Shown piece after piece: positions 56,221-60,650 of a stretch of 64,000 nucleotides of DNA. Each line of letters begins with the position of its first letter. The first letter of the stretch is position 1. The stretch comes from Candidatus Aenigmatarchaeota archaeon (lineage in GTDB: Archaea > Aenigmatarchaeota > Aenigmatarchaeia > JACPZZ01): contig JAZDLW010000019.1 in the NCBI GenBank assembly GCA_043801595.1, positions 1-64,000 of the forward strand, written 5' to 3'. The notes under the pieces were generated by a model. It saw nothing but the letters and a program-made list of their open reading frames with translations. It ran no database searches and was not told the origin of the DNA. A program made the translations under genes and the position numbers.

Positions 56221-56234
56221 CCGGAAAAAATCGC

Positions 56235-57203
56235 TCAGCGTCCGGGTATCGGCTTCACAAACATATGTTCTTCCCAGTGAACTGTTTCGGTGTAGCCTGC
56301 TGACGGAAGCACCTTTTTACGGATATATTCGTCAAGCTCTACCGTTGTCTTTTCTTTCAATGTTCTGTAACTCCTTTCTATTTCCGCAAAAGCGCTTCCG
56401 GTCTCCCTTCTCAGAATTGCGAGATGGGTGTTGAGGCGGGCTGCGCAATATCCGACTTTGTCTGAACCGGTTTCTTCGTGCATCCCGCGCATGCAATCGG
56501 TTATGACCGAAGCCGTTATTTCCGCGCGCTTGTCGCGGTGATGCTCTCTTCTGTAACTTCTTGTGCCCTCCTCGAATTTTCTTAGCGCTTCGTAATAGTC
56601 TTTCATGCCATTGATAATCTTTCCTGTCAGGAAGCTAAGATAATCCGGTTGCAGTTCAAAAGTGATCGGTGTCAGGTCGATTGTCACGTTTTTGTTAGAC
56701 TCTGACTCGCTTGGTCCCAGTGGCGTGACTTTCTTTTGCTTGTATAGGACGCCTCCCATGACCTCCGCTACTTCTGAATTTGTTTTTTGCAGGCCTTTTC
56801 CTTCAAATACATTGTTTGGCAGCAAAACGAAAACATGCTGCATAAGGCGGGTGTTGTAACCTTCAGTGTCGTCCAGAGGAGAAAGTATCGACCGCCAGTA
56901 TTCCGAGGGCGGTTGCGACAAAATCAGGCTAGATATTCTGTCCCTGATTTCATCAGGCGCACACGCGTTCTTTGTCAATATTTGTTTCTGTTTCTGGCTG
57001 TGGAAAGTCCTTACCCTTTCTTCTACAGCGGTTTTTTCAATACTTTCGATTATCTGCGAACCGTAGGATGTTGCTATGTCCATTGCCAGCTGTTTCGTTT
57101 TTCCAGGGTCCTGTTCCGATTCGCGGAGCGTCAGGCGGAGGTCTTCTACCGAGAACATGGCATCGTTGTTGATTTGTTGCATTTCTTCCCAGCTGTTCAT
57201 CAT
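56235..57203 (-). CDS. Hypothetical protein
   Basis: 322-aa ORF filling the gap; no motif recognised. Confidence 0.6.
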   Translation of the reverse strand: MMNSWEEMQQINNDAMFSVEDLRLTLRESEQDPGKTKQLAMDIATSYGSQIIESIEKTAVEERVRTFHSQKQKQILTKNACAPDEIRDRISSLILSQPPSEYWRSILSPLDDTEGYNTRLMQHVFVLLPNNVFEGKGLQKTNSEVAEVMGGVLYKQKKVTPLGPSESESNKNVTIDLTPITFELQPDYLSFLTGKIINGMKDYYEALRKFEEGTRSYRREHHRDKRAEITASVITDCMRGMHEETGSDKVGYCAARLNTHLAILRRETGSAFAEIERSYRTLKEKTTVELDEYIRKKVLPSAGYTETVHWEEHMFVKPIPGR

Positions 57204-57280
57204 GACAAATCATTATCAGGTAAGTTTTAAATTACCATGAGAATGAAAGGTTTTAATCCCTTGCACGTCAGAAAAATCTT

Positions 57281-58078
57281 ATGAAAAACGGATGGAAAAT
57301 CTACGTGTTTGAGCACGATCCTTATTCTTCCGAACTGGCAGAATCGCTGCAACTGGTATTCGGGCTGGAGAGGAGAAGCGTAAATGTAACGTACGGGGAC
57401 AACAGGAAACAAATTATAAATAAAGTGAAAAAAGCCATCAACGGGGATCATGAAAGGATTCTCACTGTCCTTGGTCACGGATACGCACACAAAATGACCT
57501 ACGGCCTCTGCAAGCACGTCGCCGACAGTCGAAGCGACGGTTATGTCTACTACCATTTCGACCAGCACGGCGACATCGGTCACATATGGACGCGCATCAC
57601 CCACGGCGGCTTCGTAGCCAGATTGTTCAATGATACGAAAGCGCAGGATGTTGTATTTTCCGATGAACCCGATTTCAACAGCCGCGCGCTTGCCAGGGGT
57701 TTGGACGTGGACGATACCGGGGCGTCGTTGATGACAAATAAGAACGTTCCTGACGCATATTGTTCGTTCGATCTGGATTGCATGCGTTACGAGGAAATAA
57801 AAACCGGCTGGCCGGGAGGAACGATGCATTCGATCGCATTGCTCAACGAAGTGGAAAATATCAAAACGAAGAAGGACATAATCTCAGCCGATGTCCTTGG
57901 CTATTCCGGCGAAAGGGATGCCAAAAGTCACGTGATGTATGCGGTGCTCATGGAGACGCTCATCGGAGGCGGACGCGTCGATGAATTCAAGTCGCTACAC
58001 GAAATCGCAAAGAATGGGCGGATCGACTATCAAGACATGCTCAAAGAATTCAAGTCAATCGGAAGTTGCGGACGCTGA
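57281..58078 (+). CDS. Arginase/ureohydrolase-fold protein (divergent)
   Basis: LGHGYAH, HFDQHGD, SFDLDC metal-binding motifs. Confidence 0.6.
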   Translation: MKNGWKIYVFEHDPYSSELAESLQLVFGLERRSVNVTYGDNRKQIINKVKKAINGDHERILTVLGHGYAHKMTYGLCKHVADSRSDGYVYYHFDQHGDIGHIWTRITHGGFVARLFNDTKAQDVVFSDEPDFNSRALARGLDVDDTGASLMTNKNVPDAYCSFDLDCMRYEEIKTGWPGGTMHSIALLNEVENIKTKKDIISADVLGYSGERDAKSHVMYAVLMETLIGGGRVDEFKSLHEIAKNGRIDYQDMLKEFKSIGSCGR

Positions 58079-58087
58079 TAACGCATA

Positions 58088-58111
58088 CTAAAAAGAATAG
58101 CGCCGAGGAAG
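58088..58111. repeat. Copy of tRNA-Ser(TGA) 3' end plus trailer (att-like site 1)
   Basis: CTAAAAAGAATAGCGCCGAGGAAG matches 60222-60245 at 23 of 24 nt. Confidence 0.8.
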
Positions 58112-58172
58112 CGATATACCTCGAAGTGTTCACATCCTGCCCTTGTTTTATCTTATTAGGACTTTCTATAGT

Positions 58173-58616
58173 TTACGTTGCATGCACAGCATAATTCGAT
58201 GGCGCATACGAATCGTATAATTTCCAAATGTCGCCAATCTTTTGCATTCTAAAGGTGTTTGCGGGATCAAGATATGTTTTATTATTTTCTGTTTTTATCA
58301 CATCCGCGGTAATAGTAGCATCGGTCTGATTGTTATACTCTACTTTGGTGATGTTTAGATCCATCCCCATTTTGGAGCATGCATCCGGTTGCGGTTTAGT
58401 TTCTACACAGAATTTTCTAACAACATCCCAATATTGGATACCCAGATAATCTCCGGATTTTTCAAAATCACCAGATTTCCAAAGGGAAAGAAGTGCTCTA
58501 AGGTCGTTTTCCGGCGTATGTGAGAAATATGTGTTAAAAATAAGCCAAGCCATAGCAACGAACAGAACAATACTTACAATTCGCTTTTTATTAGGAGTTA
58601 TTTTCAGTGTTTTCAT
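58173..58616 (-). CDS. Membrane-anchored secreted protein (possibly NTF2-like)
   Basis: Basic N-terminus plus one TM helix; ATITADV...FRMQKIGDIWKL; AT-rich. Confidence 0.6.
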   Translation of the reverse strand: MKTLKITPNKKRIVSIVLFVAMAWLIFNTYFSHTPENDLRALLSLWKSGDFEKSGDYLGIQYWDVVRKFCVETKPQPDACSKMGMDLNITKVEYNNQTDATITADVIKTENNKTYLDPANTFRMQKIGDIWKLYDSYAPSNYAVHAT

Positions 58617-58697
58617 TCTCTCACTTGATGTATGTCCATGCCCATCCTTCCGGCCTCCAAACCTTAAACCCAAAGGATGGGATATGGACAATTTGAC

Positions 58698-58712
58698 TTA
58701 GCGCCGAGGAAG
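58698..58712. repeat. Copy of tRNA-Ser(TGA) 3' end (att-like site 2)
   Basis: TTAGCGCCGAGGAAG is identical to 60231-60245. Confidence 0.75.
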
Positions 58713-58900
58713 AACGACCCGGTTTATCAGGGTCATACAGCCTTCCGCACGAAACTATGATGAGCTTTCATGTTATTGGGGTCGCTGGAAAATAAAGGCG
58801 ACGGTAAAGCTCCCTTTTTGGCTGCATCTTGCCTAGTTTGCGGGTAAAGGCACCGAAATCTATAAAAACTATAACTGCTATAACACCTATAGGTGATATA

Positions 58901-59080
58901 GTGACCAACACTACAATAGCAGTGAGGAAAGAGACGAAAGAGCTGTTGAAGCACTTCGGCGGCAAAGGCGACACGTACGATGACGTTATCCAGAAGATGT
59001 CAGCGACATACGAAGAGTTTGTAAACACTCAATACAACCGTTTGACGGAAAAACATAAGTTCAAGAAGATGGACCTATGA
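58901..59080 (+). CDS. Putative antitoxin (ribbon-helix-helix-like)
   Basis: GTG after AGGTGAT; TTIAVRKETKELLK...TYDDVI; overlaps the toxin by 4 nt. Confidence 0.75.
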   Translation: MTNTTIAVRKETKELLKHFGGKGDTYDDVIQKMSATYEEFVNTQYNRLTEKHKFKKMDL

Positions 59081-59340
59081 TGGCTGTCCTGATACACGAC
59101 GCAGCCGATAAATCGCTAAGAAGTTTTGAGAAGAAAGTGCGGGAAAGGATAAAACAGCAAATAAAACTTCTGGCTGAGAACCCGTATTCCACACAGTTGG
59201 ACATCGTGAAACTCAAGGGAATAAACGACGGCCCGGACTTATTCAGGATGCGCGTCGGTAATTACAGGGTCATTTATTTCATCCAAGATGGGAAAATCCT
59301 TATAACGGATATAGGAAGACGGGAACGAATCTATGGTTGA
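59077..59340 (+). CDS. relE: RelE/ParE-family toxin
   Basis: LAENP, KLKG, FRMRVGNYRVIY, IGRRERIY. Confidence 0.9.
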   Translation: MMAVLIHDAADKSLRSFEKKVRERIKQQIKLLAENPYSTQLDIVKLKGINDGPDLFRMRVGNYRVIYFIQDGKILITDIGRRERIYG

Positions 59341-59414
59341 TCCGCATGGTTGGCAAATAAAACCGACGGTGGGGATCCCTCGCTAGTTTTAAGTTTAGAT
59401 ATTGAATTCTAATT

Positions 59415-60128
59415 ATGGCAGTCGATGACAAGCTATCTAAATATTGTAAAGGAATAATAGAATACCCATTTTATAGCCATCCTTATTTTTCTGACGCTAT
59501 TAACGCAAACGGAACTGTAGATGTTAAAAAATTTCAACAACGATATCAGACATTCTTATCAGATAAACGATTAAGACGATCCCTCTCTGATACTGAAAAA
59601 AAAGTGTTGCTGGGAAGAGCGGGCATAGAAGGTTACCAGAAAACCCAAAAGGAGATAGGAGCGGAAATGCGGCGATCCGGTAACAGAGTTTTTCAAATAG
59701 AAACAAAGGCGTTGAGAAAATTACTGCCAAGAAGCAACGGAGGTGTATTAGACGCACTCTACCTTGAAGAGTTTGAAGCCACAAGTGCGAAGTACGCTAA
59801 ATCGAAAGATTTTGATTTGGATTATATAAACCGAATTAAATCGCAGGCGGCGGCAAAGATCATGGAGGAAGAAGAAAAGACACGCAAACAAATACAGCTA
59901 ACTGAAGAAAATGCTCGTCATAAGGCTCATTTAACTGAGTACGGTATCCAACATTTAGGACTTTCATCACGCACAAATAACAGCTTATTGAGAGGAGGCG
60001 TCGATGTCATAGATCAGCTAGAAGAAAAAAGTGATGAAGAATTACTTAAAATACGAAATGTAGGAGTAAAGTCAATAAGAGAAGTTCGTGAAAGACTGGA
60101 AGCTTATCACAAACAAAGGAAGCCCTGA
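59415..60128 (+). CDS. Fusion of sigma-70 region-4 HTH and RNA polymerase alpha C-terminal domain
   Basis: LSDTEKKVL..R.G....TQKEIG......RVFQIETKALRKL; IQHLGLSSRTNNSLLRGG...EELLKIRNVGVKSIREV. Confidence 0.85.
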   Translation: MAVDDKLSKYCKGIIEYPFYSHPYFSDAINANGTVDVKKFQQRYQTFLSDKRLRRSLSDTEKKVLLGRAGIEGYQKTQKEIGAEMRRSGNRVFQIETKALRKLLPRSNGGVLDALYLEEFEATSAKYAKSKDFDLDYINRIKSQAAAKIMEEEEKTRKQIQLTEENARHKAHLTEYGIQHLGLSSRTNNSLLRGGVDVIDQLEEKSDEELLKIRNVGVKSIREVRERLEAYHKQRKP

Positions 60129-60234
60129 TCACAAGACTGTTATTTTGGTGAGGTCTCCAACCAGTGGGTCTCCTGGGCCGGGAGTTTACCCTATAATTGA
60201 ACTCCCTCGTATGGGCGTCCTCTAAAAAGATTAG

Positions 60235-60468
60235 CGCCGAGGAAGGGATTTGAACCCTTACGGGACTTGCGCCCCACCGGATTTCTAAGGCTCCAAACTT
60301 AAAGGATTCCTCATCTCGCCGCCGTGATCAGAATCAAGCCTTGTTGTCATAGCCTCTCAAGTATCGCCTATGCACCAATCATCTCTGGTATCAGCATATC
60401 CGGCGCATTTAACCTGGTTCTGCCTTCGATTGTACAGCTGGAATACTTCCAGCAGCAAAAACCTCGGC
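60235..60468 (-). tRNA. tRNA-Ser(TGA) with three predicted introns (8/9: 60425-60460; 30/31: 60363-60399; 37/38: 60283-60355)
   Basis: Removing three BHB-like inserts gives an 88-nt cloverleaf: GCCGAGG-TG-GCAGAACCAGGTTAAATGC-G-CCGGA-CTTGAGA-TCCGG-TGGGGCGCAAGTCCCGT-AAGGG-TTCAAAT-CCCTT-CCTCGGC-G. Confidence 0.8.
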
Positions 60469-60650
60469 TCTCCTCGGCATATTTTAATTGCGCGGAAAGG
60501 TTAATAAACGTCCGTTTGGCACGCCGCGTTTAGATACCAAGCTACGTCAAAAAATCACGCATAAATATGGCATATGACGTAGTTGAATGACAGGTATTAT
60601 AAAAAAAACATTCGCTAAATCTAAAAGAAACGAAAAACGGAATAATTGTT

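Follow-up and report, generated by a model that had tools for sequence, protein, structure and literature searches.

A tRNA-linked accessory gene of an Aenigmarchaeota genome encodes a fusion of sigma-70 region 4 with an RNA polymerase alpha-CTD

Two promoter-recognition modules of bacterial type, region 4 of sigma-70 (sigma4) and the RNA polymerase alpha subunit's C-terminal domain (alpha-CTD), are joined in one protein encoded at 59415..60128 (+) in a 64,000-nucleotide stretch of Candidatus Aenigmatarchaeota DNA (hereafter the window). Sequence comparison indicates that this 237-aa protein, P0001, is the product of a real accessory gene of a class that has been seen many times, with a function that is predicted. 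What is new here, on the same footing, is a subfamily with an N-terminal domain of its own and a drifting recognition helix.

Both domains score above their Pfam cut-offs, as expected from the initial annotation, which had read them from the letters of the open reading frame. Sigma70_r4 (PF04545) matches aa 56-103 (59580..59723, +) at 34.6 bits against a cut-off of 24.1, and RNA_pol_A_CTD (PF03118) matches aa 167-229 (59913..60101, +), an HhH domain, at 56.1 bits against 23.8. A sequence search of the PDB with P0001 places alpha-CTDs at the top (E 2e-9) and also returns sigma region 4 (E 6e-4). The first 55 residues (59415..59579, +), absent from the initial description, form a domain with no Pfam family that is conserved in the close subfamily (YC..HPYF..NGTVDV..FQ.RY). 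A likeness between its N-terminal helix and the helix preceding sigma4 in bacterial fusions was considered, and is unsupported because the hhalign alignment starts only at residue 29. Pfam gives no match in P0001 to sigma-70 region 2 (PF04542) or to the alpha-NTD (PF01000/PF01193), and the rpoA equivalog model scores 51 bits against a cut-off of 228, on which grounds P0001 was rejected as a sigma factor or an RpoA.

The AlphaFold2 model of P0001 (mean pLDDT 87, pTM 0.63, from a 6-row alignment) begins with a small domain at the N-terminus, continues through the HTH, a pair of helices and a helix of 42 residues, and ends in the HhH domain. The charged helical linker that had been proposed is predicted as one continuous helix (aa 135-176; 59817..59942, +), and in relatives it is shortened or swapped for a second alpha-CTD. 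Foldseek searches with the model return alpha-CTD and sigma4 chains as top rows at ~1-2 A rmsd, none at E <=0.001, and the homodimer prediction scores 0.25 against a mark of 0.42. P0001 is a basic protein (computed pI 9.4), as are three of the four relatives for which a pI was computed (9.5-9.7), the acidic one being P0155 (5.5). The gene was also correctly described as AT-rich: its GC (0.387) and GC3 (0.312) fall in the lowest 2.1% and 1.3%, respectively, of the 519 ORFs of at least 200 aa in the genome.

The sigma4 of P0001 is 42% identical to residues 551-607 of E. coli RpoD, and the 'clear sigma4 HTH' of the initial annotation holds as a fold; it does not hold for the base-reading positions of the recognition helix, which are not RpoD-like. 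RpoD T583-R-E-R-I-R-Q589 is S-G-N-R-V-F-Q in P0001 (SGNRVFQ versus TRERIRQ), and R584, E585 and R588, on which -35 specificity depends (PMC2613000, in part), are replaced by G89, N90 and F93 (R584G, E585N, R588F). Among 97 sigma4 domains of more distant fusions R584 is kept in 75%, E585 in 85% and R588 in 86%, in a set biased by having been found with P0001 as query and aligned through profiles seeded with E. coli. Subfamily members differ in the state of this helix: P0007 and P0096 have it intact, P0001 and P0155 have an altered form, in P0005 it is interrupted, and P0010 and the G003 copy have lost it; the HTH as a whole is largely lost in the copies of G004 and G003, which suits relaxed selection as much as changing specificity. 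Pairwise identity averages 0.25 across the recognition helix (residues 87-97) in an alignment of six subfamily sequences, compared with 0.50 for sigma4 helix 1, 0.40 for the N-terminal domain and 0.42 for the alpha-CTD; this low value is not peculiar to the helix, because the linker helix (0.20) and the part following the HTH (0.30) are equally variable. As far as these sequences tell, few parts of the subfamily are less conserved than the recognition helix, the fold being kept while the reading head drifts.

The alpha-CTD is better preserved at its DNA-facing side. Residues R186, N189, N215, G217, K219 and S220 of P0001 are identical to their equivalents in E. coli RpoA, R265, N268, N294, G296, K298 and S299, and 268 and 294-299 also belong to the alpha-CTD DNA-contact determinant. 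DNA is bound by residue 265 and its neighbours, and sigma4 is contacted by residue 261 and its neighbours, the 261 determinant (PMC1874639, PMC9638938, each in part). The latter is replaced in P0001, with Q179, H180 and G182 at the positions of D258, D259 and E261, and the 275 alpha-CTDs of more distant fusions keep D259 and E261 in 6-7%. The relatives do not keep the DNA-contact residues throughout: R265 has become K, Q or S in some copies, and in others N268 is replaced by H, R, Y, S or L. Close relatives space sigma4 and the following alpha-CTD 52-95 aa apart, and there is therefore no fixed -35/UP geometry.

These features set P0001 apart from each of the known systems that it resembles. 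With region 4.2 of RpoD/SigA (PF04545; PDB 1ku7, 3n97) it shares the HTH fold and structure, but it is without regions 1.2-3, its -35 readers are replaced, an alpha-CTD is fused to it, and its host has an archaeal polymerase. With the alpha-CTD of bacterial RpoA (PF03118; PDB 3gfk, 1z3e) it shares the HhH fold, the 265 determinant and the GxKS motif, whereas it differs in the 261 determinant and has no alpha-NTD, and therefore no tether to a polymerase. Phage and bacterial sigma4 + alpha-CTD fusions have the same pair of domains and, like P0001, have as a rule lost the 261 determinant; they mostly keep RERIRQ, in contrast to the drifting helix, separate N-terminal domain and archaeal host of the P0001 subfamily. 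Sigma-70-family genes (fam00359) have been reported in DPANN genomes, with mis-binning ruled out and the mechanism left open (Castelle et al. 2021, PMC8204110). Like P0001, these are bacterial sigma-type sequences in archaeal genomes; alpha-CTD fusions and loss of region 2 are not mentioned in the parts of that study considered here.

The host is a tiny archaeon of symbiotic type, in line with the archaeal assignment made at the outset; its genome measures 814 kb at 86% completeness and 1.67% contamination. TBP is present, and within this 86%-complete assembly there is no match to sigma region 2 (PF04542) and no tblastn match at E 0.01 to E. coli RpoA or RpoD. PF03118 is matched once only, by the P0001 gene itself, and the sole PF01000 match is a 208-aa frame without an alpha-CTD that we read as archaeal Rpo3. 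The homologue in G004, a genome of the same genus, is labelled Ca. Aenigmarchaeota. An assembly chimera or bacterial contamination, which the AT-rich gene, its bacterial domains and the finding of the gene cluster on one contig only might suggest, is scarcely credible given the archaeal genes on both sides of it on a 107-kb contig, a neighbouring tRNA syntenic with relatives, the contamination figure, and homologues amid archaeal genes at other loci in three of the six other genomes of the genus. Of the two outcomes that the initial annotation set as refuting it, absence of HMM matches and a chimeric contig, neither was obtained.

As initially suspected, the gene lies in a tRNA-linked islet. 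The integration target is an intron-split, class II tRNA-like gene at 60235..60478 (-), which is conserved in relatives; ARAGORN does not call it at this position, Rfam gives a weak class II match over its 3' half, and copies from three relatives can be aligned to it. Its intervening segments differ in length between members of the genus, and the variable arm of three relatives contains a long inserted hairpin that is missing from the host genome. The tRNA 3' end is repeated twice, as an outer, att-like boundary at 58088..58115 (28 nt, 93% identical to 60222-60249) and as an inner, second att-like scar at 58698..58712 (15 nt, identical to 60231-60245). The whole variable region from Cbf5 to the tRNA (56230..60230) is absent at the site in four of the six other genomes of the genus (G001, G002, G005 and G006), where the Cbf5 gene ends directly before the tRNA end and the site is empty. 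The tRNA 3' end present as a direct repeat, together with relatives whose site is empty, marks the insertion as a tRNA-integrated element; the integrase of an autonomous one is lacking, so far as tyrosine integrases (PF00589) in the 86%-complete genome show. A related organism's contig diverges from the window sequence at 60230, and in one DNA sequencing run relatives of the flanks are present while 57,340-60,011 has no cover. In G004 another insert occupies this Cbf5-tRNA site (L055:2484-3962, L061): a RelE-like/AbrB-like pair of toxin-antitoxin type and an ORF resembling an ATPase, all named by eye, with no fusion gene. G003 has no match to Cbf5. The Cbf5-tRNA site is a recurrent integration hotspot.

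The insertions in the window come to ~4 kb, of which the inner 2.1 kb holds four genes. An AT-rich orphan ORF of 172 aa with a hydrophobic stretch near its N-terminus (58173..58691, -) is followed by a probable antitoxin (58901..59080, +), whose role is judged from its position and whose DUF7557 match is weak and under the cut-off, by a toxin gene (59077..59340, +; RelE/ParE family, type II toxin-antitoxin pair), the start of which the antitoxin overlaps, and by the P0001 gene directly downstream of the toxin. A near-perfect palindrome at 58878-58901, just 5' of the probable antitoxin start, is a candidate operator of the toxin-antitoxin pair. Beyond this inner cassette the variable region holds two more genes, an orphan of 322 aa and one that is arginase-like. 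The orphan (56235-57203, -) lies outside the att-like repeats, yet is absent at the site in four relatives, and adjoins Cbf5 in a related organism; the arginase-family-like gene (57281-58078, +; Pfam 22.7 bits, barely above the cut-off) also lies outside the repeats and is absent at the site in four relatives. Sigma-70-type promoters are no more frequent in the cassette than expected (5 found, 5.7 expected). A TATA-like octamer 20 nt 5' of the ATG of the P0001 gene (59387..59394, +) is a weak predicted archaeal promoter; it falls in a genome-wide motif peak 19-25 nt before starts, which is seen in 9% of 465 upstream regions compared with 1.3% and 2.6% in two control windows.

Genes of the P0001 type, full or partial, occur in four of the seven genomes of the genus and at another locus each time. 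A subfamily profile finds homologues bearing the N-terminal domain in G002, G003 and G004, and among 371 genomes of the phylum only same-genus proteins match this profile from the N-terminus. In G002 the gene lies 3' of rpoK and an orphan and before enolase, in G004 between a ParE/RelE gene and tRNA-Val, and in G003 after DUF192, where it runs off the contig end. The window and G004 copies thus both sit between a RelE/ParE-type toxin gene and a tRNA, and the other two are among housekeeping genes with no toxin-antitoxin pair adjacent. All four genes (GC 0.39-0.42) are AT-richer than their flanks, and since they sit at different archaeal loci the P0001 gene is taken to be real, mobile and patchy in its distribution. 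The intact homologues are 35-42% identical, and four subfamily proteins at 34-42% identity share 43 invariant columns. Two of five full-length relatives have a second alpha-CTD. Two more stand-alone sigma4 proteins are encoded in G003 (L049:643-1131, L050:147-728). Elsewhere in the host genome (G000, contig C23, L004:1348-2523, -), a 391-aa ORF between two ribosomal-protein-like genes appears by eye to be a LAGLIDADG-type endonuclease fused to an HTH.

The initial annotation had implied that the architecture is rare, and here the databases disagree. An exhaustive protein search with P0001 finds 1883 proteins at E <=0.001; among the best 149 of these, leaving the query aside, alpha-CTD is present in 147, sigma4 in 99 and both in 97, with the domain order of P0001 in 27 of the 97. 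Several alpha-CTDs are found in 140 of the same best 149 of 1883, a share that is inflated because multi-domain proteins score higher in that search. Neighbours in the ESM Atlas form sigma4 + alpha-CTD clusters of 54-218 members, mostly Uroviricota or Bacteria as far as the few labelled members tell, and the search hits are seldom named: ten that were looked up include three Chloroflexota clusters, one of them with a Thermoplasmata-labelled member. P0001 belongs to this class by having both domains in one chain with no alpha-NTD or sigma region 2, and lacks the RpoD-like helix typical of it, keeping 0/3 of R584, E585 and R588. Compared profile against profile, the subfamily matches nine further fusions across 209 columns at 99.8% probability. 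In other organisms the sigma4/alpha-CTD module occurs joined to SF2 helicase, helicase-associated (HA) and HARE-HTH domains as well (P0048, P0052, P0006).

Full-length relatives are fewer. Of 80 loci returned by a search of genome contigs, two hold a full-length relative and 78 are Chloroflexota loci matched over the alpha-CTD only; word-indexed protein searches returned only P0007. No close relative was confirmed among viral and metagenome contigs, and in isolate phage and plasmid collections none of 15 matching phage records covers 80% of P0001; when those collections were queried with a fusion of bacterial type, the top matches that carry names are rpoA or rpoD. In PHROGs only the sigma-factor family phrog_351 was matched. 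Within the phylum, 20 of 371 genomes have PF03118 above the cut-off, compared with none of four archaeal controls, and both domains are above cut-off in 5 of 18 PF03118 proteins (17 genomes, two short fragments excluded). PF04545 at E 1e-6 is found in 76 of 371 genomes, a count that includes ordinary HTHs because two archaeal controls match too. The origin of the archaeal fusions was addressed with a tree of 57 concatenated domain rows and 100 columns, comprising 9 subfamily or Aenigmarchaeota proteins and every second (48) of 95 others, in which a single origin is not rejected (p-AU 0.62); in an earlier tree the archaeal fusions were scattered with weak support.

Further alpha-CTD proteins of Aenigmarchaeota are varied in form. 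A 412-aa protein in G227 (L020:1228-2466, -) runs from a sigma-70-like body through an alpha-CTD to a probable C-terminal HTH, and matches the sigma70-ECF model above its cut-off, regions before 4 included; its gene adjoins a CCA-adding enzyme and has a GC of 0.34 against 0.51 in the flanks. Two adjacent alpha-CTD genes, one with a weak sigma4 match, lie in G253 (L012:1201-3053, -). A second fusion subfamily of ~410 aa, with a shared N-terminal region and intact RERIRQ, occurs in two families of the phylum (L011:1096-2328, L014:1321-2580). Seven proteins of 136-189 aa (L016, L017, L018, L021, L022, L024, L025) have a C-terminal alpha-CTD and unrelated N-termini with no Pfam family.

The function that we tentatively favour, at somewhat less than an even chance, is that of a stand-alone, loosely specific DNA-binding repressor of A/T-rich archaeal promoters, either of its own cassette or of acquired genes. 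P0001 would descend by horizontal transfer from sigma4/alpha-CTD fusions of bacteria and phages, and its gene would be transcribed by the archaeal machinery from the TATA-like box. The alpha-CTD may hold A/T-rich DNA by its backbone and narrow minor groove, the HTH with its helix drifting from copy to copy may add a variable major-groove contact, and the long linker would permit flexible spacing between the two. Bound in this way, the protein would block TBP/TFB at A/T-rich promoters, be they those of the cassette or of further genes acquired not long ago; lacking an alpha-NTD and sigma region 2, and having no bacterial polymerase to recruit, it would act only by occupying DNA. This reading is favoured because the alpha-CTD binds the A/T-rich minor groove, also non-specifically (PMC2613000, in part), the protein is basic, and the HTH keeps its fold as its reading head changes. 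The 'repurposed DNA-binding regulator' of the initial annotation fits the retained DNA-contact residues, the pI and the intact homologues of P0001, so far as sequence can speak for it. Against repression stand the uneven retention of the alpha-CTD DNA-contact residues in relatives and the acidic P0155, the HTH largely lost in two copies, and the two homologues that sit among housekeeping genes. A strict TATA pattern precedes just one of the four family genes (A/T-rich near-matches were seen by eye in two others), and a shared operator was sought by inspection of the four upstream regions only.

A sequence-tolerant protein that coats A/T-rich DNA, of the xenogeneic silencer or nucleoid type, would bind through its alpha-CTD, retain the HTH as a scaffold and have no operator. 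We consider this unlikely, though it accounts for the doubling of the alpha-CTD in two of five full-length relatives while the recognition helix decays, for the (inflated) frequency of several alpha-CTDs in the wider class and for the basic pI, and the same-genus genes are themselves AT-rich. However, presence in four of seven genomes is unusually patchy for a chromatin protein, and no oligomerisation domain was identified.

It is improbable that P0001 rides on mobile cassettes as an almost neutral passenger, in slow decay since its transfer from a bacterial or phage element. A patchy gene at a different locus in each genome, with atypical GC and codon use, with the HTH lost in some copies and with no tyrosine integrase (PF00589) matched in the 86%-complete genome, is what such a passenger might look like. 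Yet the frames are open and the 43 invariant columns persist at 34-42% identity; the N-terminal domain, complete only in this genus among the 371 genomes, is among the conserved parts, and P0001 itself keeps the alpha-CTD DNA-contact residues.

The initial annotation had offered a decoy or effector able to occlude bacterial-type promoters on foreign DNA. That P0001 sits on their -35/UP elements, be it on DNA entering the cell or inside a partner bacterium, we regard as quite improbable. The wider fusion class does keep the -35-reading residues (75-95%), the RERIR helix is intact in two of five relatives (P0007 and P0096, alignment A1), and several other Aenigmarchaeota fusions have an intact helix, L020 adding a sigma-70-like body. 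P0001, however, has G, N and F at 584, 585 and 588, and bacterial-promoter occlusion is poorly supported because these readers are lost, the sigma-contact patch is replaced and the helix is poorly conserved; the sigma4/alpha-CTD spacing is variable as well. Archaeal polymerase does not read bacterial promoters, so occluding them inside an archaeal cell gains nothing, and no hydrophobic N-terminal signal is visible by eye in the P0001 sequence.

A protein bait, in which the two domains are surfaces for activators or viral inhibitors that P0001 senses or soaks up, possibly as a defence with the toxin-antitoxin pair, is very improbable. BREX PglW contains an alpha-CTD-like domain (PMC12839542, in part) and MZA MzaA a sigma4-like one, P0001 matches both weakly at domain level (E 2e-4 and E 3e-3), and a toxin gene is adjacent in two of four genomes. 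Those are, in contrast to P0001 without partner genes, large multi-domain proteins in defence operons; the matches are of single shared domains, the full PglW and MzaA models giving 15-17 bits against cut-offs of 800-990. PADLOC finds no defence genes in the five ORFs neighbouring P0001, archaeal viruses have no reason to target bacterial polymerase surfaces, and tRNA sites here commonly carry toxin-antitoxin pairs as cargo, the G004 pair lying at the same tRNA without a fusion.

A literature search found no study of a sigma4/alpha-CTD fusion, and an earlier description of the bacterial class may exist. Aravind and Iyer are said to have treated bacterial sigma4/alpha-CTD proteins in 2012 (the HARE-HTH paper, and a J Struct Biol review) as possible promoter-occluding regulators. 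The accessible parts of PMC5512222, PMC7824862 and bioRxiv 2023.06.07.544091 contain nothing on such a fusion.

It is a long shot that Aenigmarchaeota repeatedly keep bacterial promoter-recognition mimics, from sigma4, alpha-CTD and their fusions to an almost complete sigma joined to an alpha-CTD, as effectors that act on the DNA of a partner cell, possibly a bacterial one, with the drifting helix a sign of arms-race retargeting; if true, it would hint at cross-domain host manipulation by DPANN archaea. The relatives of P0001, with the helix intact, altered or lost and with one or two alpha-CTDs, are a ready series for testing bacterial modules in archaea, and the same series could inform the function of the phage and bacterial fusions. 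Should P0001 repress promoters of the TATA type, one domain of life would have made a transcription factor out of the basal machinery of another.
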